A stretch of 64,000 bases of DNA from Nautiliaceae bacterium (GCA_039831155.1 JBDONT010000043.1:160001-224000), one strand, 5' to 3'; shown: positions 4,311 through 46,625, counted from the stretch's first letter. Program-made: numbers and translations. Notes: generated by a model from the sequence alone, not told the origin.

Positions 4311-5368
4311 TATTTTAAATCGGCTCCTACAGCTTCGCTTATATGACTAAATCCGTCTCTTTTGAGAAGTTCTATAAGTCCTAAATTTATATCTCTTGCC
4401 ACAAAAGGACCTTTGTAAACTATAGCCGTATAGATTTGAAGTAAAGAAGCTCCAGCTTTTATACGTTTATACGCTTCTTGTGCCGAATCGATACCACCTA
4501 CGCTTACGATAGGAACTTTTGAAAAGACCTCTTTTGCGACTATTTGTAAGACTTCATAACTTCTTTTTGCCAAAGGTTTCCCTGAAATTCCTCCTTTTTT
4601 AATAGGAGAATTTACCAAATCGTAATTAACGGTAGTGTTTGTAACGATTATACCGTCTGCTTTGTTTTCTACGCTTAAGTTGGCTAAATTTCTAATCATA
4701 TCGTCTTGCATATCCGGGGAAAATTTTATAAGAATAGATTTTCGGGTTAGGGTTTTTAGCTCTTTAAAAAGAGTTGAGATAAAAGTTTCGTTTAGTAAAT
4801 CTCTAAGTCCCGGAGTGTTCGGAGAAGAGATATTTACTACGAAAAAGTCCACTACGTCGTTTAGTTCTTTTACTAAAATTTTATAATCTTCTATCGCTTT
4901 GTCTTCCGGGGTGCTTTTGTTTTTGCCTATGTTAGCACCGATAGGAAGTATGAAAGGGTGGATTTTAGAGAGTCTTTTTTTCATTACCTCAACGCCTTCG
5001 TTATTAAATCCGTAAGCGTTTTGAACGGCTTGATACTCTATATGTCTCCAGGCTCTTGGTTTTTCGTTACCTGGTTGAGGCTTTGGAGTAACGGCTCCCA
5101 CTTCTCCCCACCCAAAACCCAGTGCAGGCCACGCCGATATCATTTTTGCGTGTTTATCAAATCCGGCGGCAACTCCTATAGGGTTTTTAAATTCAAGATT
5201 CCATATCTTTTGGTTTAAAATAGGGTCGTCTATAAAATTTCTTTGGATTAAAGGATTAAAAAAAAGAGGACATCTTCTAGCCGTACTTAGGGCTAGTTCT
5301 GCTAAATTGTGAGCTAATTCCGGGTCTGTTTTGTAAATTAAAGGTTTTATCTTCTCAAAAAAACTCAT
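4310..5368 (-). CDS. pyrD: Quinone-dependent dihydroorotate dehydrogenase (class 2)
   Basis: AAGFDK, GANIGKNK, NISSPNTPGLR and GGISGKP motifs. Confidence 0.96.
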   Translation of the reverse strand: MSFFEKIKPLIYKTDPELAHNLAELALSTARRCPLFFNPLIQRNFIDDPILNQKIWNLEFKNPIGVAAGFDKHAKMISAWPALGFGWGEVGAVTPKPQPGNEKPRAWRHIEYQAVQNAYGFNNEGVEVMKKRLSKIHPFILPIGANIGKNKSTPEDKAIEDYKILVKELNDVVDFFVVNISSPNTPGLRDLLNETFISTLFKELKTLTRKSILIKFSPDMQDDMIRNLANLSVENKADGIIVTNTTVNYDLVNSPIKKGGISGKPLAKRSYEVLQIVAKEVFSKVPIVSVGGIDSAQEAYKRIKAGASLLQIYTAIVYKGPFVARDINLGLIELLKRDGFSHISEAVGADLK

Positions 5369-5369
5369 T

Positions 5370-6767
5370 TTATACCTTTTCCCATAAAGTTCCGTTTGGA
5401 GTGTCTTGTATCTGAATTCCCATATTTTTCAGTTCGTCTCTTATTTTATCTGCAAGTTCGTAATTTTTTTCTTTTTTAGCTTCGTTTCTTTTTTCGATAA
5501 GTTCGTTTATTTTCTTTTTAGTCTCTTCATCTATTCCGGCTTGGAAATACTCATACGCATCACTTCCACCGACTCCTAAAAGCGAATCTATAAACTCTAT
5601 ATTGTTTACGATTTTTTGTTTCAAGGCTTTGTCTTTAGGATTTTTATCCAGGTTTTCGTTTACTTCGTTTATAAATTCATCAACCGTTGCAAGTGCTTTT
5701 GAGATGTTTAGGTCGTCTTTTAGTGCGTTTAACAGTTTTTCTTCAAACTCTTTGTCTTTTTGTTTTTTACTAATTCCGTATACTCTTTTTTTGAGACGAT
5801 AAAGTTTATCGAGTCTTTTTTTGCTTGCGATTAAATCCTCTTCACTAAAATTCAGTGGGGCTCTGTAATGAGTACTCATAAGATAAAACCTTAAAACTTC
5901 TCCCGGGTAGTGTTTTAAGGCGTCTTTTACAAAAAAACTGTTTCCGAGTGATTTACTCATCTTTTCGCCGTTGATTTGTACAAATCCGTTATGCATCCAG
6001 TATTTTGCCAGGTGGGTGTCGTAAGCACAATAAGTTTGAGCCTCTTCGTTTTCGTGGTGAGGGAAAAAGAGGTCTGCTCCTCCCCCGTGGATGTCTATTT
6101 GATAAGGGGTATTATCGTAGGCTATATGTTTTTTAATCATAGCACTACACTCTATATGCCACCCCGGTCTTCCTTTTCCAAAAGGCGAATTAAAACATAC
6201 GTCATCTTCTCCTTTGCACGCTTTCCATAATGCGAAATCCGCCGGGTTTTTTTTACCTTCCGTATCTACTCTGTGAACGACTTCGCCCTCTTGACACTTG
6301 TTTGAGAGTTTGCAATACTCTTTGTCTTTGCTGGTATCAAAATAGATATCTCCGTTTTCCAGTTTGTAAGCGTACCCTTTTTGTAGGAGTTTATCGATTA
6401 ATTCGAACATAGCTTCAAGGGATTCGGTGGCTTTCGGTTCTATATCGGCTCTTTTTACGTTTAAAGCTTCCATATCTTTTAAATAAGAATCAATATAATA
6501 TTCGGTAATTTCTTTTAGACTCTTACCGGTTTGATTCATTTTTTTTATGATTTTATCGTCGATGTCAGTGAAGTTTTTTACGAAAGTTACGTTATAGCCT
6601 AATGCTTTTAGGGTACGTCTTAGTAAATCGAAACTTATAGAACTTCTAGCGTGTCCTAAGTGTGCGTCGTCGTATACCGTAGGTCCGCATACGTAAATTT
6701 TTACCTCTTTTTCTTTTAGGGGGATAAATTTAATTTTTTCTTTTAAATGTGAATCGTAGATTTTCAT
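5370..6767 (-). CDS. cysS: Cysteine--tRNA ligase
   Basis: CGPTVY, HLGH, GRPGWHIEC and KMSKS motifs. Confidence 0.97.
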   Translation of the reverse strand: MKIYDSHLKEKIKFIPLKEKEVKIYVCGPTVYDDAHLGHARSSISFDLLRRTLKALGYNVTFVKNFTDIDDKIIKKMNQTGKSLKEITEYYIDSYLKDMEALNVKRADIEPKATESLEAMFELIDKLLQKGYAYKLENGDIYFDTSKDKEYCKLSNKCQEGEVVHRVDTEGKKNPADFALWKACKGEDDVCFNSPFGKGRPGWHIECSAMIKKHIAYDNTPYQIDIHGGGADLFFPHHENEEAQTYCAYDTHLAKYWMHNGFVQINGEKMSKSLGNSFFVKDALKHYPGEVLRFYLMSTHYRAPLNFSEEDLIASKKRLDKLYRLKKRVYGISKKQKDKEFEEKLLNALKDDLNISKALATVDEFINEVNENLDKNPKDKALKQKIVNNIEFIDSLLGVGGSDAYEYFQAGIDEETKKKINELIEKRNEAKKEKNYELADKIRDELKNMGIQIQDTPNGTLWEKV

Positions 6768-6776
6768 ATTTCTCCT

Positions 6777-8174
6777 TTATATGATTAAAAGAATTAAATT
6801 TTTAAAAACAACTGCTAAAATTATACTTGCTAATATTACCAAAATAGAATAAAAAATATATTTTTTTTCAAAAAACTCTGCAAATTTACCAAAACCGAAC
6901 TCTTTTATTATTAAAAAGAGTTTAACCGCTTCCCCTATACTTGTAGCAAGTGCCAAGCCGTAAAATTTTAAAGGCATAATAAGAGTCAACGAAAAGAAAA
7001 TATTAACTCCTAAAGATATAGCCGAAATTTTTGCGGCTTTTAAGTGTCTGTGGGTTGCAAAAAGATAGCTTGATAATAGTTTGTTAAGACCGGCTGGGAT
7101 TAATCCTATCATATACATAATTAAAGTAACGGACGTATAAAGGGTGTCTTGTTTAGTGAAGGCTCCGTGTTCGAAAAGCAAAGTTATTATCTCTTTACTT
7201 GAAATTACGGCTACTATTGTTGCTAAGGTGAGGATATAAAAAAGAATCCAAAACATCTTTTTTAAAATTTCAAAAGCCTCTTTGTGTTGGTTTTTATTTA
7301 GGCGTTTGTTTATTTCCGGGAAAATTACACTGCTTGTAGCAAGTGCGAAAAGAGCGAACGGAAGTTGGAAAAGTCTGTTTGCATACCATAAATAACTAAT
7401 ACTTCCACTTGCCAAAAACGTAGCGAGCCACGTATCTATAAAAGAGCTTATTTGAGAAGTGGAGTTTCCGAAAACAGAAGGTAAAAAATGCTTTTTAAAA
7501 GTTGATAGGTCTTCTTGTTTTTTGCTTTTTGCCCCTATGCAGAGGAGTTTTAATACGTTGTGTTTTTTTGCAGAGTATAAAATCGCCAGAACCTGGGCTA
7601 TTCCTCCGAAAATCACTCCTAAGCTTAAATACCATATGATTTGTTCTTTTGGTAAGTCTTTGGAGATTAAAAGGGCTGCTATAAATGCGATATTCAATAA
7701 AACCGGAGTAAAAGCACTCATAAAAACCTGTTTTTTATGCTGAAGTAAAGATGAAAAAAAGGTCACTATAAATATTAAATCCAAATACCAAAAATTAATC
7801 GCTACCAGGGGAGAAGCGAGTTTTTTAGCCTCTTCACTAAATCCTGGAGCCAGTAAATCGGTAATTAGATTTGAAAATAGGGTTACAATTACCGATAAAA
7901 TAAGTATAATTATAAATAACTTTTTAAACACAAGCCACGCAAAGGCCGGTTTGTTTTTTGCTTTTAAGAAGCTTGGAAGAAAACTTTGGGCAAAAGCACC
8001 TTCGGCGAAAATTCGTCTGAAAAGATTAGGGAATTTAAAAGCGACGAAAAAAATGTCCGAATATACGTTTGCACCGAGAATCGAAGCACTTAACAAATCT
8101 CTGATAAATCCCAGGATTCTTGAAGTTAAAGTTCCTAGGGATGTGATGCCTATTAGTTTTAGTATGGATAACAT
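6777..8174 (-). CDS. murJ: Lipid II flippase
   Basis: SRILGFIRD, FRRIFAEGAF and ANRLFQLP motifs. Confidence 0.94.
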   Translation of the reverse strand: MLSILKLIGITSLGTLTSRILGFIRDLLSASILGANVYSDIFFVAFKFPNLFRRIFAEGAFAQSFLPSFLKAKNKPAFAWLVFKKLFIIILILSVIVTLFSNLITDLLAPGFSEEAKKLASPLVAINFWYLDLIFIVTFFSSLLQHKKQVFMSAFTPVLLNIAFIAALLISKDLPKEQIIWYLSLGVIFGGIAQVLAILYSAKKHNVLKLLCIGAKSKKQEDLSTFKKHFLPSVFGNSTSQISSFIDTWLATFLASGSISYLWYANRLFQLPFALFALATSSVIFPEINKRLNKNQHKEAFEILKKMFWILFYILTLATIVAVISSKEIITLLFEHGAFTKQDTLYTSVTLIMYMIGLIPAGLNKLLSSYLFATHRHLKAAKISAISLGVNIFFSLTLIMPLKFYGLALATSIGEAVKLFLIIKEFGFGKFAEFFEKKYIFYSILVILASIILAVVFKNLILLII

Positions 8175-8201
8175 AAAACGTATTTTACCAAAAGGATTGA
8201 T

Positions 8202-10067
8202 TTGGGTCTATTTGATTTTTTAAAAAAAGAGGAAAAAAAATCTCTTCCTATAAGAGTTAAGGTCGATAACGTAGCAAAAGCCCTTGTTGAAGTTTCAAAG
8301 GAGAGTGGGGTTTTGATATCTTCTTTGGATTTTGAGATTGTGGATTTTAAGACTTATATTAAAATGGAAGGTGATGAAGAATTTATAGAACTTGACGAAA
8401 TCAGCAGACCTTTAATTGGGAGTGAAGAGTTTTTGCTAAACGAAAAAAACGAAATAAAGCAGGTTTACGACATAATAATAGATAGGATTAAATTTGACGA
8501 TAATTTTGAAATTATAGGGGAGATGAAACTTAATAAACATCTCACAAAAGCGGAGTTTGTTTTAAAAAACGAGTCGTTTTTGGTTTATACGCCGGATATC
8601 GAAGAGAAACTTTTAAAAGAACTTAATAAAAAAAAGCTTAAAAACTCCCTTTTAATCTCTATTTTCGATAAAGAACTTAAAGAAGATGTTAAAGAGGTCG
8701 TAAAAACCTTAAAAGTTAATAATAAACTTTTAGAAGATAAAACCGTAAGGCTTTGTCGTGGGCTTGACGCGGTAGAGAGTATAGAAGGGAAGGTTATTTA
8801 TCACTATCTTTTAAAAAGAACTCATAAAAAAGAGCTTATTTTCCCGGTAAAAAAAGGGGATGTTTTAATAGAAATAATTAAACCGAAACCGGGGAAAAAC
8901 GGAAGAGACTGCCGTGGAAAAATTATAAAACCTCAAAACGTTTCTCATTTTAAAATGCCTAATATCTTGTATGAAGAGAGTGATATTGAAAAACAAGAAG
9001 ATGATGAAAAGATTTTGTTTATAGCCTTAAAAGACGGATATGTCCATAAAGATAAAGATTTTTACAGTATAAGAGACGAAATGGAAGTTAAGCAGATTAA
9101 TTTAAAAACGGGAGACGTCAGTGGGGCTACGGACTCAAACGTTAAGATTAACATAAGTGAATCGGACGCCTTAAAAGAAGCCATAGCCGATAATATGAAG
9201 GTTGAGACTACGTTTTTGGTTGTAAGGGGAAATGTAGGAAATTCGGCTAAGATAGTATCTAAAGAGTTAAGGGTTGAGGGGCAGACTCATCAAAAGTCTA
9301 AAATCAAATCCGGCAGTGCTTACGTAAATATACATAAAGGATACCTTGAGGGAAAAGATGTTGAGGTTAATAGGCTAGAAGGTGGAGTTATAAGAGGTAA
9401 AAACGTCAAAGTAAAACAAGCTATAGGAGGAAAAATATTCGCTCATAATGTTGAGGTTGAGATTTTAGGTTCTCATGTGGAAATTCACGCACTTAACGAA
9501 ATAAAAATCAAAAGTTTAAAAGGCAGTGAAAATAAACTTATAATATCCCCTAAAGAAGTGCTTGGCGTAAAGGGAAGTGCCGAAGAGATTGAGAAAAAAA
9601 TAGAAGAGATAAAAAGACATCTTGAGATAAAAATATTAAACTATAATAAAAGAAAGCAGGTAATTGCCAAAAACAAACCGGTTATTCAAAAGCTTTTTAA
9701 AGAATATACCGAAAATAAAAAAAGAGGCCTTAAAACACCGGCTTTAACTTTAAAAAAGATAAAAGAGTTTAACGACTTTAAAGAAAAAACCATTGAATTA
9801 AAAGAACAGATTAAACATCTTCAAGAGGAGATTAAAGAGTTAAAAGAACATTTGCAAGAGTATCAAATAGCTATTTTTAATGCTAAAATTATATCCTTTT
9901 CGCCTTGGAAGGCTTTTAATAGGATAGTATTTGACATGATAGAACCTCCTATTTCTTTAGTGTATGATACCAAAGGCGATGAGGGGGTTTGTGGATTTAA
10001 GCTAAAAGATTTGGGAGATACTTACAAAATAGTAAAAATAAAGGTAAAAGATGATAGCGGCTCTTAA
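8202..10067 (+). CDS. Flagellar assembly protein A-like (FapA/DUF342) protein
   Basis: KPKPGKNGRDCRG segment, beta-helix-like repeats and C-terminal coiled coil; lies between murJ and ruvA as in other Campylobacterota. Confidence 0.75.
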   Translation: MGLFDFLKKEEKKSLPIRVKVDNVAKALVEVSKESGVLISSLDFEIVDFKTYIKMEGDEEFIELDEISRPLIGSEEFLLNEKNEIKQVYDIIIDRIKFDDNFEIIGEMKLNKHLTKAEFVLKNESFLVYTPDIEEKLLKELNKKKLKNSLLISIFDKELKEDVKEVVKTLKVNNKLLEDKTVRLCRGLDAVESIEGKVIYHYLLKRTHKKELIFPVKKGDVLIEIIKPKPGKNGRDCRGKIIKPQNVSHFKMPNILYEESDIEKQEDDEKILFIALKDGYVHKDKDFYSIRDEMEVKQINLKTGDVSGATDSNVKINISESDALKEAIADNMKVETTFLVVRGNVGNSAKIVSKELRVEGQTHQKSKIKSGSAYVNIHKGYLEGKDVEVNRLEGGVIRGKNVKVKQAIGGKIFAHNVEVEILGSHVEIHALNEIKIKSLKGSENKLIISPKEVLGVKGSAEEIEKKIEEIKRHLEIKILNYNKRKQVIAKNKPVIQKLFKEYTENKKRGLKTPALTLKKIKEFNDFKEKTIELKEQIKHLQEEIKELKEHLQEYQIAIFNAKIISFSPWKAFNRIVFDMIEPPISLVYDTKGDEGVCGFKLKDLGDTYKIVKIKVKDDSGS

Positions 10068-13959: not shown

Positions 13960-14544
13960 ATGGAAATCGTTTTAGAGTGTTTGTCAAATATTTCCCAACA
14001 TTTAGATATCGTAATTTTAGTTACGATGGTAAATGTTTTTATTTTTTCTTTAAATATAGTTACCATAAGTAAAATCACTAAATTTTTTATGTTTTTATCA
14101 GTTATAGCTTTAATTTCTTTAACTCTTTTAGTAAGTTACGATGTAATTATGAGGAAGTTTTTTCACGGGGGAAGTATAGCTTTACAAGAGCTTGAATGGC
14201 ATCTTTTTGATATAGTGTTTCTTTTTTCTATCGCTTACACCTTAAGCCACGACAAACACGTAAGAGTCGATATCTTTTACGATAAGTTTCCTACCAAGGT
14301 AAAAGCGATAATTCAAATTATTACCGTTTTATTTTTCGTAGTGCCTCTTTCTACTTTAATTGTGGTTGAGGCTATTCCTTTTGTACAAATGAGTTACGCT
14401 ATGCACGAACAATCCGGTGACCCGGGTGGACTTTGTTGCAGATGGATTATTAAAAGTTCTATGATATTTGCGTTTTTAGTTGTGATTTTGCAATCTGTTT
14501 TAGAATTAAAAAAAGCTTATTTTAAACTAAAAGGACAAAAATGA
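13960..14544 (+). CDS. TRAP transporter small permease (DctQ family)
   Basis: ELEWHLF, HVRVDIFY and SGDPGGL motifs. Confidence 0.88.
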   Translation: MEIVLECLSNISQHLDIVILVTMVNVFIFSLNIVTISKITKFFMFLSVIALISLTLLVSYDVIMRKFFHGGSIALQELEWHLFDIVFLFSIAYTLSHDKHVRVDIFYDKFPTKVKAIIQIITVLFFVVPLSTLIVVEAIPFVQMSYAMHEQSGDPGGLCCRWIIKSSMIFAFLVVILQSVLELKKAYFKLKGQK

Positions 14545-40247: not shown

Positions 40248-41972
40248 TTATTTGTTTATTAATTCCATAATTTTCTCAAGAGCCATATCTTTATCAACTT
40301 CAAACTTATCACCCGTTTTTCTGTCCCTAATTTCAACTTTACCACTTTTAAGTTTTTTACCCACAATCACCCCAATAGGAAAACCAACAAGCTCAAAATC
40401 TGCAATTTTTGGACCAAATCTTTCACTTCTATCATCAAGAATAGTTTTAACTCCCGCTTTTTTAAGCTCTTCATATAAATTTGTAGCAAAATCTAATTGC
40501 TCTTCTTTTTTAACATCTCCTACAATTATATCAACCACAAAAGGTGCTATCTCTTTTGGCCAAATTATCCCTTTATCATCGTGATTTTGCTCAATTGCCG
40601 CAGCAATAAGTCTTGATACCCCAATTCCATAACATCCCATAATAAAAGGCTTAGCTTTTCCATTCTCATCAAGAAAAGTTGCATTCATAGGTTCAGAGTA
40701 AACCGTACCAAGCTTAAAGATATGTCCAACTTCAATTCCTTTTGTAATTTTTAAAGGCTTCCCACATTTTGGACACAAATCCCCCTCTTTCACAGCTGCA
40801 ATATCTCTATAAATCGTTAAATTCCCAAGTAGATTTGCATCAAGAAGTCCTGCTCCTTTTATATGATAATCTTTTTTATTTGCTCCACAAACTAACTCTT
40901 CTGCCATTCTTAAATCATCATCAATTACATACTTAATATTGCTTGGAAGTCCAAAAGGTCCAATAAATCCAGGCACAAGTCCCACTTTTTCAAGCTCATC
41001 TTCACTTGCATCAACAAGCTCCAAGGCTCCAACTGCATTTTTTGCTTTTGTCTCTTCTAATGTATCAGTTCCCCTTACAAAAAATACAACTATCTCCTCT
41101 TCTCCATTATCATAAATAGCCTTTTTAGCAACAGCTTTAATACTAAAATAAGGGTCAATTCCTAAAAACTCACAAACTTCTTCTATACTCTTTTTATCCG
41201 GAGTATACACTTCTTCGATTATTTCTGTTTTAATTGGATTTTCTCTTTTTTCGTTTTTTCTTTTTGCAACTTCAATATTTGCCGCATAATTACACTCACT
41301 GCAAACTACTATATCATCTTCTCCTGTATCAGCTAAAACCATAAACTCTTTACTACCTTTTCCACCAATAGCACCGCTATCAGCCTCAACTACTCTAAAA
41401 TCAAGCCCCATTCTTTTAAAAATTTCACTATAAGTCTCTTCCATTAAGTTAAATTCTCTATCCAAATCCTCTTTTGTAGCGTGAAAAGAGTAAGCGTCTT
41501 TCATTATAAATTCACGCCCTCTAAGAAGCCCAAATCTCGGTCTTGCTTCATCTCTAAATTTAAGATTTATTTGATATAAATTAACCGGAAGCTGTTTATA
41601 ACTTTTAATAGTCCCTCTTACTAAATCAACTACACTTTCTTCATTTGTAGGTGAAAGTACAAACTTTTGCCCTTTTCTATCTTCAATTCTTAAAAGCTCA
41701 TCACCATATTTTTTAGCCCTTCCTGTCTCTTCCCATAATTCATATGGAGTAACAAAACTTAGCATCACTTCCTGAGCCCCTGCTTTATCCATCTCTTCTT
41801 TAATTATTGCTCTTATATTATCAAGCACCATCTTCCCAAGAGGTGCAAAATCGTATATTCCGGCTGCGACTTGTTTTATATATCCACCTCTAACTAAATA
41901 TTTATGACTCGGCGTTACTGCATCTTTTGGTGCTTCTTTTAATGTATAAGCAAAAAATCTAGACCATCTCAT
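40248..41972 (-). CDS. proS: Proline--tRNA ligase (with editing domain)
   Basis: PTNEE, FRDEARPRFGLLRGREF, IEVGHIFKLG and MGCYGIGVSR; ATG at 41972 in a TGATG overlap. Confidence 0.97.
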   Translation of the reverse strand: MRWSRFFAYTLKEAPKDAVTPSHKYLVRGGYIKQVAAGIYDFAPLGKMVLDNIRAIIKEEMDKAGAQEVMLSFVTPYELWEETGRAKKYGDELLRIEDRKGQKFVLSPTNEESVVDLVRGTIKSYKQLPVNLYQINLKFRDEARPRFGLLRGREFIMKDAYSFHATKEDLDREFNLMEETYSEIFKRMGLDFRVVEADSGAIGGKGSKEFMVLADTGEDDIVVCSECNYAANIEVAKRKNEKRENPIKTEIIEEVYTPDKKSIEEVCEFLGIDPYFSIKAVAKKAIYDNGEEEIVVFFVRGTDTLEETKAKNAVGALELVDASEDELEKVGLVPGFIGPFGLPSNIKYVIDDDLRMAEELVCGANKKDYHIKGAGLLDANLLGNLTIYRDIAAVKEGDLCPKCGKPLKITKGIEVGHIFKLGTVYSEPMNATFLDENGKAKPFIMGCYGIGVSRLIAAAIEQNHDDKGIIWPKEIAPFVVDIIVGDVKKEEQLDFATNLYEELKKAGVKTILDDRSERFGPKIADFELVGFPIGVIVGKKLKSGKVEIRDRKTGDKFEVDKDMALEKIMELINK

Positions 41973-41985
41973 CAAATCTCCTTTA
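41971..41985. repeat. 15-bp direct repeat, proS-side copy (ATCAAATCTCCTTTA)
   Basis: Identical to 45781-45795; the flanking bases differ on both sides. Confidence 0.95.
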
Positions 41986-44017
41986 AATTAATTTCTAATT
42001 CATCACTTAAAAATTCTTTATATTCTTCAAAATCATATCCAAAATAATCACAATATGTTTTTAAAACTTCTTTATCTTCAAAGTTTTCTAAAATATTTAC
42101 ATTACCATCATAAACCTCCCTAGATATTTCCTCTGCTTTTTTTGTAAAATCTTCTTTTAAGTCTCTTTTTTTTAAATATAAAATTACAGTAGTTGTGCCT
42201 GTTTTTCCAAATGTGTTTGTTGGAAGCTTTACAATAGCTTTTATTTCAAAATATTTTAATAAAAGCTCTCTTGTTTTAATAAATAAAGCTGAATTTGTCT
42301 TATCTAAAATGGAAATTGGCAAAATTATAGCAGCTAAACCTTTATCTTTTAATATATGTTTCGTTTTTTCAACAAAAAAACACTCTATTGAATTATTAGT
42401 AGAATATTGTTTAACATCTACAAATTTTGAAAGCTCAAATTTTTCTGTATCTTCTTTTTTTAACGTTTCTAAAAACCCTTTAACACTATAAGGAGGATTT
42501 GAAATTAATACTTCAAATTCATCCTTAACTACATCTTTTTTTAAAGCGTCATCATAAATTATCTCAACTTCATTTCCATACATAAATGAACTTACCTTTG
42601 CCACTTTACTTAATCTATACTCTTTTTCAATACCTACTACTTTTGCTTGTTTATGATTTTTTGCAAATTCATTTAAAAAATGCCCCGCCCCACAAGCATA
42701 ATCTATCATAGACTTATACTCTTTTTTAGGAAGAGATGAGACAATAAACTTAACTATCGGCATTGGTGTAAAAAATTGCCCTTCGTTTTGTTTGATACCC
42801 TGGTCTAAAAAGCCCTCAAACAAATCCCCTAAAAATTGATTTTCTTCGGAATTTGTTAGATAAATATCTTGAAAAAGCAAAACAATTTTTCTTAACACCT
42901 CAAAATTTTGATAAAAAAGCTTTTCATTATGAACTTCAATAAAAGCAAAATCGTTTGTAGTAAAAAATTTTAGTTTTTTAATAGCTTCTTTTACTTTTTC
43001 TTTTATCGTTTCAATCTCAAAAGATTTAAAATATTTTTCTATATCTTGATTATCTATATAGGTAATATCTTCATTCAAAAACTCTTTCATACCCTCTTTA
43101 TAAAGCTTTTGTAATCTATCCTGAAACGAAAACGGGTCATCTATTGCAAAACCTCTCCAAAAAAATTGTAAATTATCAGGATTTTCTTTTTCATCTACTA
43201 TTTTACACAACAAAAGATTTACAAGCTTATCAAACGCATTTTCCCTACCACTTACATTATGAGCTCTTAAAACAGTAGCGAATTTATGATAAATTCCACT
43301 TATATCTTCCTCTTTTACAATTTTTAAATCTTTTAAGGAAAAAACACTCTTTTCAAGTTCATAAGCCCTAAATTCATCATCAAAAAGCCCTCTAATACCC
43401 TCTTTTTTATAAACTTCACTCCAAACTTCAAACAAAGCTTTTGCAATATCTCCAAGCTCTCCTTTTCTAGCTTTTTCATAATTTTTCTCTTTATCTAAAT
43501 TTTCCTCAACATCAATAAGCTTTATTAAAAAATATTTATAATCTAAATTTTCATTACTCGTATAAAGACTTATATATTTAGCACCACTATTAGCAGCATA
43601 AGAGAAAATCTGTCCCCCATCAAGTTGAGTTAATTTCAAAGCTTTTTCATATTCAGCTCCCCATGTCTTACATTCAATAATTACTAACGTTTTATCTTCA
43701 TTATCCTTTATAGCAATATCAGCTTTTCCACTTTTATCAAGGTGCCCTAATCTCCATTCCGGTTCAAGTTCAATATGTTTTGGTAAATACCCTTTATTAA
43801 GCAATCTATAAACGCACTCAAACACTACAAAATTTTCCGGTTTTGAAAAATTTGAGGTGGTTAAGTCATTTACTTTCAATTCATTCGGATAAATAAGCTT
43901 TTCATTGTTAAAATCTGCTTTTAACTCAAAATCTCCAAACTTTTTTATAAAAACATTATCTTTTTCTTCAAAATTAAGTTTTCTTAATACATTTTTAAAA
44001 TTTTCTTTTGTTATCAT
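41972..44017 (-). CDS. Endonuclease plus N6-adenine methyltransferase half of a type IIG/IIB (CjeI/Cj1051c-like) R-M-S enzyme
   Basis: KADIAIKD...IIECK nuclease motif; GQFFTP, DYACGAGHFL and SNPPY MTase motifs. Confidence 0.9.
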   Translation of the reverse strand: MITKENFKNVLRKLNFEEKDNVFIKKFGDFELKADFNNEKLIYPNELKVNDLTTSNFSKPENFVVFECVYRLLNKGYLPKHIELEPEWRLGHLDKSGKADIAIKDNEDKTLVIIECKTWGAEYEKALKLTQLDGGQIFSYAANSGAKYISLYTSNENLDYKYFLIKLIDVEENLDKEKNYEKARKGELGDIAKALFEVWSEVYKKEGIRGLFDDEFRAYELEKSVFSLKDLKIVKEEDISGIYHKFATVLRAHNVSGRENAFDKLVNLLLCKIVDEKENPDNLQFFWRGFAIDDPFSFQDRLQKLYKEGMKEFLNEDITYIDNQDIEKYFKSFEIETIKEKVKEAIKKLKFFTTNDFAFIEVHNEKLFYQNFEVLRKIVLLFQDIYLTNSEENQFLGDLFEGFLDQGIKQNEGQFFTPMPIVKFIVSSLPKKEYKSMIDYACGAGHFLNEFAKNHKQAKVVGIEKEYRLSKVAKVSSFMYGNEVEIIYDDALKKDVVKDEFEVLISNPPYSVKGFLETLKKEDTEKFELSKFVDVKQYSTNNSIECFFVEKTKHILKDKGLAAIILPISILDKTNSALFIKTRELLLKYFEIKAIVKLPTNTFGKTGTTTVILYLKKRDLKEDFTKKAEEISREVYDGNVNILENFEDKEVLKTYCDYFGYDFEEYKEFLSDELEINLKEI

Positions 44018-44026
44018 TTAAAGCCT

Positions 44027-45781
44027 TTATAAGTATTTCCTTAAAATCTCTTCTTTTTGAGTTTTAGCAGAATTTATAATCTCTTCATTAGCCCTAATTC
44101 TTTTTTCAAGTTTTTCAATCTGTTTTACTATTTCTTGTTGAACTTCAATAGGTGGAAGAGGGATTTTTAGGTTTTCATAAAAATTTATTGGTACTCTTTT
44201 ATGACCACTTGCACCAGTCATAACCTGTTGAGCTTGTTTGCGTATTTGTTCTCTATTTAGAAAATAAAACAAATATCCATTATCCAAATCATTATCTTTT
44301 ACTCTAAAAACATGAAACTCGCTACTTCCAAAAGCTATATTGTTTTTTAAATTTCTAGCAATGGCACATTTTCCATTTTCCATAGAGGGAGTAATTTTTG
44401 CAATAATTATGTCGTTTTCTCTAAAATATGTATAACTTCCCTTTTTTAATTCTTTTAATTTTTTAATATCTTGCTTTTTTATATATCCATTTTCACTAAC
44501 ATATTCCATCGGTATAAAAGAAACTTCTAAATTCTCATCTAAATTAGCTATCTCTTTTTTAGAAGGATTAAATAATACTAAATCTTTTAATAAAACACTT
44601 TTTTCTTTTACATTATTTATTATTTCTTCAATTTCTCTTTTTAATTTAACATTTTCTTCTTTTAACTTTTCAACTTTTTCATCGATTTCACTGCACTCTT
44701 TTACTATATTTTCTTGGATTTTTCTTTCTACTAAAGGTATTTGAATATTCAAATAATCATCCATCTGCAAATTTTTTATATTACTCATACCTGTTTGCAT
44801 ATCAAAAGTAAATCCTTGATTGTAAACATAATCTAAAAGCAAAAACAAAAATTTACTCTTAAATCTATTATTTTTTAGTCTCAGTCTAACCATAAAGTTT
44901 GAAAATGTATATCCCTTCTCTTTTAAATCAAAATACATTACCCTACCAACTGCCTGATGAGAGCTACCACCTGACTTTTCTAAAATAATATCACCCTCTT
45001 TTAACTCCCTATTTCTAAACTGCTTTTCTTCTACTTGCAACCCTTTTACATCTGAAAAATCTATATTATTAGAAGTATCTCCAAAATTGGTATTTCTTAA
45101 AACTTTTGCCTTAATAAAAGGAGGCTTTTTACCTTCCCATAATCCTCCTATTGTATCTACAATATTACCAAGCTTTATATTTTGATATTTTTCGCTTAAT
45201 TTAACTACAACTTTTGGTTTTAACCTAATAACCTTATTAAATTCACTCTCTTTAATATCAAGCATATCGGTTAGATTATAAACTTTTACAAATTTTTGCA
45301 AATCTTCACTAATTCTAAACTCTTTATCTTCTAAAAAGTTCCTGATTATTACGTTTAATTTATTCTCATCATCTAAATTTTTCGGATTATATAGAGGAGT
45401 TTGGATATTGTTTATACTTTTTATATTTTGAAGGGTTCTTTTCTCATCTTCATCAAGTTCTTCTTTAATCTCTACGTTAGAGATATATTTTATTCCCTCA
45501 TTTCCCTTCGCACTACTCCACTCATACCCTAAAAATTTTTTTATCTCATTTGTTTTATTAGGTGAATTTATTACTAATGTTTTTTGATTGTAAGTTAATA
45601 AAAAGTATAAAAATTTTTCTCTTTCTCTCTCTTTTACAAACTTCCTAAACTCTTTATTTTCTATTTTTTCTTGCTCTTCTTTACTTAGTTCTTTATATTT
45701 TTTTCTACTTCTTCTATCTTTTGTAGATTTTAAATTTTCAAATTTTTTTTTATACTCCTTCAACATATCTTTAAAACCCAA
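44027..45781 (-). CDS. Specificity half: MTase C-terminal helical/linker region plus two HsdS-like TRDs
   Basis: KKFLGYEWS..KGNEGIK linker typical of fused IIG enzymes; two TRDs ending IPLVERKIQ and IPLPPIEVQ; TTG start with AAGGAG upstream. Confidence 0.88.
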   Translation of the reverse strand: MGFKDMLKEYKKKFENLKSTKDRRSRKKYKELSKEEQEKIENKEFRKFVKEREREKFLYFLLTYNQKTLVINSPNKTNEIKKFLGYEWSSAKGNEGIKYISNVEIKEELDEDEKRTLQNIKSINNIQTPLYNPKNLDDENKLNVIIRNFLEDKEFRISEDLQKFVKVYNLTDMLDIKESEFNKVIRLKPKVVVKLSEKYQNIKLGNIVDTIGGLWEGKKPPFIKAKVLRNTNFGDTSNNIDFSDVKGLQVEEKQFRNRELKEGDIILEKSGGSSHQAVGRVMYFDLKEKGYTFSNFMVRLRLKNNRFKSKFLFLLLDYVYNQGFTFDMQTGMSNIKNLQMDDYLNIQIPLVERKIQENIVKECSEIDEKVEKLKEENVKLKREIEEIINNVKEKSVLLKDLVLFNPSKKEIANLDENLEVSFIPMEYVSENGYIKKQDIKKLKELKKGSYTYFRENDIIIAKITPSMENGKCAIARNLKNNIAFGSSEFHVFRVKDNDLDNGYLFYFLNREQIRKQAQQVMTGASGHKRVPINFYENLKIPLPPIEVQQEIVKQIEKLEKRIRANEEIINSAKTQKEEILRKYL

Positions 45782-45795
45782 TCAAATCTCCTTTA
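45781..45795. repeat. 15-bp direct repeat, S4-gene-side copy (ATCAAATCTCCTTTA)
   Basis: Identical to 41971-41985. Confidence 0.95.
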
Positions 45796-46033
45796 CGTAT
45801 TCTGTTTTTCTACTCTTTGGAATAGTCTTAGTCTCCGGTATTCGCAATACTTCGTATTTTTTAACGCCGCTTAAATAGTGAATTTCTATTATATCACCTA
45901 CTTTTACATCTTTAGCCGGTTTTGCTTTTTTTCCATTTATAAAAACAACGCCCTCTTTACACATCTCATCGGCTATTGAGCGTCTTTTTACGATATTAAC
46001 CGCATTTAAAAACTTATCTATCCTCAAACTCAT
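45782..46033 (-). CDS. S4-domain RNA-binding protein (Hsp15/RqcP-like)
   Basis: RIDKFL...KRRSIA...KPAKDVKVGD motif. Confidence 0.9.
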   Translation of the reverse strand: MSLRIDKFLNAVNIVKRRSIADEMCKEGVVFINGKKAKPAKDVKVGDIIEIHYLSGVKKYEVLRIPETKTIPKSRKTEYVKEI

Positions 46034-46085: not shown

Positions 46086-46625
46086 ATGTGTGCAATTGAA
46101 TATTACACTTATGAGGATTATAAAAAGTGGGAGGGGGATTGGGAGTTAATTGATGGTATCCCTCTTGCAATGGCACCAGCACATCTTCCTACTCATCAAT
46201 TTATAACATTTCAAATATCACATCAACTAAACTCTCAATTAGAAGAGTATTTAGAGTGTGCAGTTTTAGGAGAAGTTGACTATAAAATAGATGAAGAGAA
46301 TGTCCTAAGACCAGATTTAGTTTTAACTTGCGAAAAATTAAATAAACCTTACCTGTCACTTGCACCAGAAATAGTATTTGAAATAGTTTCCCCATCAACT
46401 GCTAGAAGAGATGAAAAGTTTAAATTTGAATTATATGAAAAAGAAAAAGTTAAATATTATGTTTTGGTATACCCAAACGATAAAAAAGCAAAAGTTTATA
46501 AACTCAATAACTCCAAATATGAAAAAGAGGGAGACATCATAACAAAGTATGAATTTAAAGAAACAAAGTGTAAAGTTAGTGTAGATTTTGAGAAAATCTT
46601 TAAAAGACTTAGTATAATTACATAA
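46086..46625 (+). CDS. Uma2 (DUF820) family PD-(D/E)XK endonuclease-like protein
   Basis: [24 protein letters not shown]...K...Y and V..Y.LV.P pattern. Confidence 0.9.

Follow-up and report, generated by a model that had tools for sequence, protein, structure and literature searches.

Results and Discussion

Organization of the S4-proS region

The DNA analyzed is a 64,000-nucleotide (nt) stretch (the window) of the genome of a Nautiliaceae bacterium (GCA_039831155.1), and window coordinates are used throughout. Its minus strand carries a restriction-modification-specificity (R-M-S) block of two open reading frames (ORFs) inserted between an S4-domain gene and proS. The order of genes is S4-domain gene, a specificity (S) ORF of 584 amino acids (aa), 9 nt, a restriction-modification (RM) ORF of 681 aa, and proS; it had been proposed in an original prediction made from the sequence alone, and was borne out by the ORFs and by Pfam. 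The features of the region are:

45782-46033, minus strand: S4-domain gene, 83 aa (ORF; Pfam PF01479 S4, 43 bits)
45781-45795, minus strand: left 15-bp repeat copy, comprising the end of the S4 gene, an AAGGAG Shine-Dalgarno sequence and the first T of the S ORF TTG
41986-45780, minus strand: insert proper, 3795 nt, with 1261 codons, stop and 9 nt in circularly permuted order
44027-45781, minus strand: S ORF, 584 aa, TTG start, linker and two target recognition domains (TRDs)
44018-44026, minus strand: spacer, 9 nt, between the S stop (TAA) and the RM ATG
41972-44017, minus strand: RM ORF, 681 aa, nuclease and N6-adenine methyltransferase
41971-41985, minus strand: right 15-bp repeat copy, comprising the RM tail and stop, a Shine-Dalgarno sequence and the first two bases of the proS ATG
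40248-41975 (start 41972/41975), minus strand: proS, prolyl-tRNA synthetase (ORF)

The final 14 nt of the S4 gene sit within the left repeat copy, and the last four codons and the stop of the RM ORF are encoded by the right copy. The proS ATG overlaps the TGA of the RM ORF, and the same overlap with the stop of the S4 gene is found at the empty site of related genomes. At the 9-nt spacer, which is the former tail-to-head joint of the R-M-S unit, TAA and AGG provide stop and ribosome-binding site in one. The block is richer in A+T than its neighbours (G+C 0.23-0.29 versus 0.33-0.35 in proS). The insert is 3.8 kb long (less than 20 kb) and filled by the two sense ORFs, the sole other ORF of at least 60 aa being a 98-aa antisense frame; neither integrase nor transposase was found among the Pfam matches of the two insert ORFs. 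Scans for promoter-like sites (22 versus 22.7 expected) and for terminator-like sites on the minus strand of the insert (none) were uninformative. The TTG of the S ORF stands directly after the TGA of the S4 gene and in frame with it (45779-45784); read-through of this single stop would join the S4-domain protein to the specificity subunit.

Protein domains and catalytic residues

Pfam found Methylase_S (PF01420) in two stretches of the S ORF (81 bits), one at residues 398-571 and the other earlier, and residues 432-580 matched structures of Type I S subunits. Two TRDs with conserved helices are present. Residues 1 to about 190 correspond to the segment that comes after the methyltransferase in single-chain enzymes, and an invariant K81..G96 motif lies at 45494-45541. 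The RM ORF matched N6_Mtase (PF02384, 108 bits) and Eco57I (PF07669, 36.8 bits), with HSDR_N_2 at 24.8 bits, just below the cut-off of 25. Its N-terminus is a PD-(D/E)XK-type nuclease with D100 and E115-C116-K117 (43667-43720), which were invariant in 46 aligned sequences. The remainder is a gamma-type N6-adenine methyltransferase; in the same alignment its motif I (42677-42703) was invariant, as was N507-P508-P509 of the N507-P508-P509-Y510 motif (42488-42499), Y510 being nearly so. The nearest solved relative of the RM ORF was RM.BsaXI (8w0p, E 4e-25).

Target duplication and exactness of the permutation

The 15-mer TAAAGGAGATTTGAT is found, exact, at 41971-41985 and at 45781-45795. Its count in the window was matched by none of 100 shuffles, and these two are its only exact copies in the 1,530,382-base genome, where four further places differ from it by one mismatch; the flanking sequence does not lengthen the 15-bp repeat. 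The 3795 nt between the repeats equal 1265 codons and, read tail to head from the RM ATG, remain open for 1261 codons, followed by the stop and the 9 nt. When one repeat copy was kept in this reading, a stop appeared after residue 681. The break lies inside one Leu codon, whose first base stays with the RM half and whose last two bases stay with the S half, the repeat completing each of them; the tail of the RM ORF past L678 (three residues and the stop) derives from the repeat.

Residues 1-200 of the S ORF matched internally in 453 longer proteins. All 120 longer homologues listed (1033-1326 aa) have the order RM then S, with the RM domains in front. By BLASTP projection on these proteins, RM extends to residue 677 and is followed by one Leu and by S from residue 2, and neither gap nor overlap arises in 106 of the 120; the remaining 14 were off by -25 to +35 residues at the joint. 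In a MAFFT alignment containing the two ORFs as separate rows, L678 of RM and residue 1 of S share one column, in which the fused proteins have L or I. A fused Campylobacter jejuni locus (L069) was colinear to the residue. The block is an exact circular permutation, combined with fission, of one single-chain R-M-S gene.

These results are in agreement with the original prediction, which held that a perfect repeat flanks the block, that the 584-aa ORF starts with the segment normally placed after the methyltransferase, that the insert equals one whole fused gene (a rejoined ORF of 1261 aa) plus a 9-nt spacer, and that the rejoined protein would fit single-chain enzymes without a gap. The circular permutation reading of the block is thus supported; from it we infer the circular or tandem intermediate and the passage in one step that had been put forward together with it.

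Rarity of the permuted order among homologues

A HMMER search against 1.84 billion representative proteins gave 3987 matches, the best 150 of which were mostly 1050-1350 aa long. The top match, of 708 aa, is not split at the same place, because it extends 21-22 residues beyond the break. For a census of loci, one genome per species was taken; 421 loci with a relative were obtained, and the best 80 were read. Among these 80, 74 were fused in one ORF (45 of the 74 colinear to the codon), three lay at contig edges and three had in-frame stops, explained in one case by a nonsense codon at residue 345, in another by a genome whose locus has 54 in-frame TGA codons, and in the third by an edge effect. 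The S part was upstream in none of the best 80 of the 421 other-species loci, so that a native split with S upstream, named beforehand as a reason to abandon the reading, was not encountered there. The fused form is spread over many phyla, and the RM part of the window is 47-72% identical to that of fused relatives, the C. jejuni locus included. In the open-access literature (titles, abstracts and passages), no unit-length permuted split of a single-chain Type IIB/IIG enzyme with S upstream was found.

The genome that contains the window carries a second homologue (G000 contig 35, 66150-68156, L022), which is normally fused, with a 1232-aa open frame, and is 41% identical in the RM part. The locus with 54 in-frame TGA codons (L054, 2928-6710) is a fused Gracilibacteria homologue with no other stops, and fits a TGA-recoded genome.

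Other copies of the permuted unit

The same arrangement was found in three further places. A 10-kb metagenome contig (L023) has the left junction and the inner joint upstream of the RM ATG as in the window, and 14 of the 15 bases of the right junction; its order is S4 gene, S part truncated at 335 aa, S tail, DUF3800 ORF, inner joint, 704-aa RM ORF and proS. A second species of the genus (G005/L027) and a 200-kb metagenome contig (L024) have the same order and the same outer junctions as a remnant. Five blocks with 87-95% identity to the window are left in it, and the four deletions between them lie at short, imperfect repeats of about 5-9 nt; just before proS there are an additional ORF of 27 codons and a third junction copy. 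Misassembly, another way in which the original prediction might have failed, is ruled out because order and junctions recur in L023, G005/L027 and L024. The arrangement is real and shared, decays in places, and is not private to the window genome.

In L023, the DUF3800 ORF (318 aa), inserted at the S stop, takes the place of the second TRD (region 4859-6108), and the RM ORF (6109-8223) contains a 23-residue tandem repeat around methyltransferase motif I. The G005 assembly has a 100-N gap inside the duplicated proS start.

None of the public sequencing runs contained half of the sampled words (best 0.25). The four runs compared are metagenome contigs, noisy and with a likeness of at least 85, and the joints seen in them are too weak to count as evidence: one from 42046 to 45530 with eight extra letters (X2, X3) resembles a further deleted remnant, one from 42000 to 45781 (X2, X3, X4; sides of 29-47 letters) resembles a nearly emptied site, and one that goes back from 45544 to 42189 is compatible with fused relatives.

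Empty site and other insertions at the S4-proS junction

In ten of the 18 family loci read, the S4 gene adjoins proS (0-3 nt) with one junction copy; this is the empty site. In two of the relatives (L003, L008), the proS start comes after a single copy of the identical 15-mer. A census of 30 family genomes gave 23 with a match, of which 12 were contiguous (one with 57 extra bp) and six had an insertion on one contig.

A second, similar junction copy was present in all seven insertion alleles read (the window, L023, G005, G001, L006, L012 and L013), and L011 has two junction copies 57 bp apart (57-bp spacer). In a genome of the same genus (G001; L026, G001:C1:1008000-1022400), a 7.7-kb block lies between the S4 gene (14062-14307) and proS (4616-6340) and contains radC, encoded on the other strand, followed by Type I hsdM, hsdS, an AAA_13 ATPase gene and hsdR; the junction motif stands on both sides of it, with 13 of 15 bases alike. 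The other insertions are an antitoxin and PIN toxin pair (L006, 299-903), a pair of an antitoxin and a RelE-like toxin, named by eye (L012, 1002-1488), and a decayed remnant (L013, 1744-2071). Inserted ORFs begin at the junction ATG and end in the junction stop, and the last ORF of each intact toxin-antitoxin pair ends within the duplicated junction. The S4-proS junction is a recurrent insertion hotspot for R-M and toxin-antitoxin genes.

Selection, age and function of the split genes

Ratios of nonsynonymous to synonymous divergence (dN/dS) were calculated by NG86 between the window and L023:

RM: dN/dS 0.069, dS 0.38, 680 codons
First part of S: dN/dS 0.070, dS 0.50, 331 codons
S4 gene: dN/dS 0.04, dS 1.4, 81 codons
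proS: dN/dS 0.06, dS 1.2, 574 codons

Since both of the copies compared are permuted, purifying selection acted on the split genes after the event. The arrangement has existed long enough to diverge (dS about 0.4-0.5) and to decay in two lineages. The TTG start of the S ORF is kept in L023, and a downstream ATG is not. The insert dS (0.38-0.50) is about one third of that of S4 and proS (1.2-1.4), and identity between the window and L023 is 0.89-0.95 in the insert and 0.78-0.85 in the flanks, with a step that is distinct towards S4 and gradual towards proS. The lower divergence of the insert may reflect a later exchange of the unit between lineages, or an effect of extreme base composition.

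A complex prediction for RM 300-681 with S 1-584 reached a score of 0.87, against 0.00 for the best control, a mark attained by 58 of 80 solved complexes and by two of 110 mismatched pairs. At least 85% of contacts agreed between runs, and the pLDDT (predicted local distance difference test) of the partner was at least 81. In the predicted interface, S 1-187 is in contact with RM 418-431 and 561-681, and RM 592-597 pairs with S 68-71. Because the partners are halves of a split gene, both alignments come from the same fused homologues and the related BsaXI complex is solved, this outcome shows likeness to the fused fold only and is no proof of binding; it speaks for the ability of the two halves to re-form the fused fold, and not for its formation in the cell. 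Taken with the dN/dS of about 0.07 between two permuted copies, it indicates that the split enzyme was probably functional, and the split form seems to have remained in use.

Origin of the permuted unit

The origin that we consider likely is the insertion of a unit-length permuted copy, taken from a circle or a head-to-tail template, with a 15-bp target duplication. An AloI/CjeI-like R-M-S gene of about 1260 codons, encoding a single-chain Type IIB/IIG enzyme, would have entered the overlapping S4 stop/proS start junction, its source being a gene-sized circle or a head-to-tail copy with the joint 9 nt upstream of the ATG. The template would have been opened inside one Leu codon at the boundary of methyltransferase and linker, and joined into the target, which ended up duplicated for 15 bp. 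This duplication would supply each frame: the S4 end would be kept, the S half would gain a Shine-Dalgarno sequence and a TTG, the RM half would gain four codons and a stop, and proS would keep its ribosome site and coupled start. The product would be a translationally coupled S-then-RM operon whose two polypeptides most likely re-associate via contacts made within one chain in the fused enzyme; the resulting two-subunit enzyme would methylate and cut at a bipartite site.

That a circle was opened once, or a unit cut from a head-to-tail copy, is suggested by the exact unit length, the one duplication and the fact that no residue was lost or doubled. A loop-out or an unequal exchange of a single gene is a plausible source of such a template, because the motif TAAAGG is frequent where genes meet (the window has 12 instances of TAAAGG-N5-9-ATG, ten of them before ORFs of at least 90 aa) and short-repeat deletions occur at the locus. 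The idea that the inner joint is a relic of the junction repeat, with which it shares TAAAGG and ATGA, was rejected, this being an ordinary stop and ribosome-site context with 12 occurrences in the window.

Several observations weigh against an insertion of this kind. No circle, tandem copy or donor was found; a plasmid or phage donor was rejected at best identities of 31% (plasmids) and 27% (phages), as was the fused paralogue of the same genome as a source, at only 41% identity. The closest fused relative, P0005, is itself only about 72% identical in the RM part. The junctions are without microhomology beyond about 1 nt and without terminal inverted repeats, the insert is without a recombinase gene, and the 15-bp duplication is shorter than the more than 30 bp by which an "insertion with long target duplication" is defined in PMC2853133. 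Two of the three other copies are broken (S disrupted in L023, a remnant in G005/L024), which makes the system dispensable. The absence of upstream S parts refers only to the 80 loci read. In addition, other S-upstream forms may exist, as some proteins have an end near the break: among 81 S-only proteins listed, seven start near it (P0287 and P0324 at most 5 residues away; P0288, P0301, P0323 and P0339 about 20-24 residues before it; P0330 36 before it), and among 101 RM-only proteins, five end at most 10 residues from it, at least one of them being labelled partial.

The 15-mer might alternatively be an att-like recombination site at which the S4-proS junction docks promoterless cassettes, the repeats being crossover sites and not a one-off duplication; this seems unlikely. 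A second junction copy in all seven insertion alleles, the two copies in L011 and the fact that inserted ORFs start at the junction ATG and end in its stop would accord with it, although survivors must keep the S4 end and the proS ribosome site, so that selection alone enriches duplicated junctions. The contrast between insert and flanks in the window and L023 (89-95% versus 78-85% identity, dS 0.38-0.50 versus 1.2-1.4) would also accord with it, but the identity step is gradual on the proS side and the extreme A+T bias may depress dS. No recombinase was identified for such a site, which alone would leave the permutation unexplained, as the circle would carry one 15-mer inside a gene that was already split.

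The permuted order could also have arisen in place through duplication, which is how permuted methyltransferases are classically explained (PMC3320104, PMC2853133). A normal-order gene at the site would have undergone tandem duplication, after which two deletions removed the first half from copy 1 and the second half from copy 2. Short-repeat deletions are active at this locus and the repeats around the insert could drive unequal exchange, yet the two deletion ends would need to agree to the nucleotide within a single codon, each on a copy of the 15-mer, and not one residue overlaps or is lost at the joint. At this site, neither a normal-order nor a part-duplicated gene was seen in the loci of 18 relatives, 30 family genomes or L023/L024; nor were tandem or part-duplicated intermediates seen in the 18 loci, the 30 family genomes, the 80 other-species loci or the own genome, and we regard this course of events as quite improbable.

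A native two-gene S-then-RM system ancestral to the fused enzymes, or an assembly artefact, is highly improbable: two-subunit Type IIB enzymes do exist in BcgI and BsaXI (PMC3874165, PMC9159934) and the break lies close to the start of a few S-only and the end of a few RM-only proteins, but the fused form occurs in many phyla (74 of the 80 loci, and most of the best 150 representatives at 1050-1350 aa), the permuted form is limited to one locus in one genus-level group with a target duplication and an empty site in relatives, BsaXI as described in PMC9159934 has RM before S and an RM of 911 aa that keeps its C-terminal part, and four independent assemblies have the same order.

Comparison with known systems

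According to PMC3874165, AloI/CjeI-type enzymes are fusions of BcgI-like subunits of about 1250 aa with two C-terminal TRDs. AloI, CjeI, PpiI and TstI have the same domains in the same circular order as the window system (nuclease, gamma methyltransferase, linker and two TRDs; about 1260 residues). In contrast to them, the chain of the window is cut after the methyltransferase core, and its pieces stand in swapped order as separate ORFs (584 and 681 aa). The window system is a derivative of the single-chain Type IIB/IIG family and not a member of it in architecture.

BsaXI is described with RM (911 aa) before S (476 aa) and as active with a permuted S (PMC9159934), and an (RM)2S structure has been reported (PMC11997821). 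The window system resembles BcgI and BsaXI in having separate RM and S polypeptides, their assembly being predicted only, and differs from BsaXI in that the S gene comes first and that S carries the post-methyltransferase segment of about 190 residues, which is used in the predicted interface. The placing of this segment on the specificity subunit is a solution different from those of BcgI and BsaXI. It bears on the mode of action of enzymes that combine one RM unit with two TRDs, and offers a natural test of the positions at which an AloI/CjeI-type enzyme can be divided without loss of function. For Type I S subunits, as presented in PMC3874165 and PMC9159934, permutation concerns the order of TRDs within S, whereas in the window it is R-M that is permuted against S.

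Furuta, Abe and Kobayashi (2010, PMC2853133) described R-M genes inserted on their own into operon-like clusters, between direct copies of a target duplicated over more than 30 bp. In their account, such insertions occur mostly in bacteria with natural competence, Campylobacter and Helicobacter among them, and gene fusion at them is a possible route to permuted methyltransferases. Like the cases given there, the window insert holds R and M, is smaller than 20 kb and has no mobility gene among its Pfam matches. The differences are the length of the duplication (15 bp versus more than 30 bp) and the arrangement, normal in those cases and unit-length permuted in the window.

Models of circular permutation comprise permutation by duplication, fission and fusion, and "cut and paste" (PMC3320104). 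They lead to the same outcome, a circular permutation of domain order, to which the window adds fission. The known models require several steps or a separate fission and fusion, whereas the DNA signature of the window points to one insertion of an already permuted template. Textbook models invoke duplication and deletion in several steps, or fission and fusion as separate events, and their intermediates are rarely caught; here is a natural case in which the DNA still shows how a multidomain gene was split and permuted (unit length, one duplication, empty site). What is out of the ordinary is the exact permutation and fission at the level of the gene, with its insertion scars still visible and the product kept under selection, the domains and the family being ordinary.

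The S4-proS junction as a possible docking site

At this hotspot, R-M and toxin-antitoxin genes are wedged between two coupled housekeeping genes, and expression of an essential tRNA synthetase passes through the insert. The insertion of a permuted unit favoured above could tentatively be extended to the junction as a whole, although we hold this wider proposal to be doubtful. An element-independent process in the host, either template switching or the capture of non-replicating circles taken up by the cell, would insert promoterless defence and addiction genes ORF-precisely at the junction, with a duplication of 13-17 bp. Circles would be opened anywhere, so that one event could both split and permute a gene, and the permuted unit would then move between species as a cassette bounded by junction repeats.

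Between argG and the S4 gene, at 46086-46625 on the plus strand, lies a gene for a putative Uma2-family endonuclease. Variability extends to this side of the S4 gene as well, because L023 carries a different ORF, of 133 aa, where the window has the Uma2 gene.

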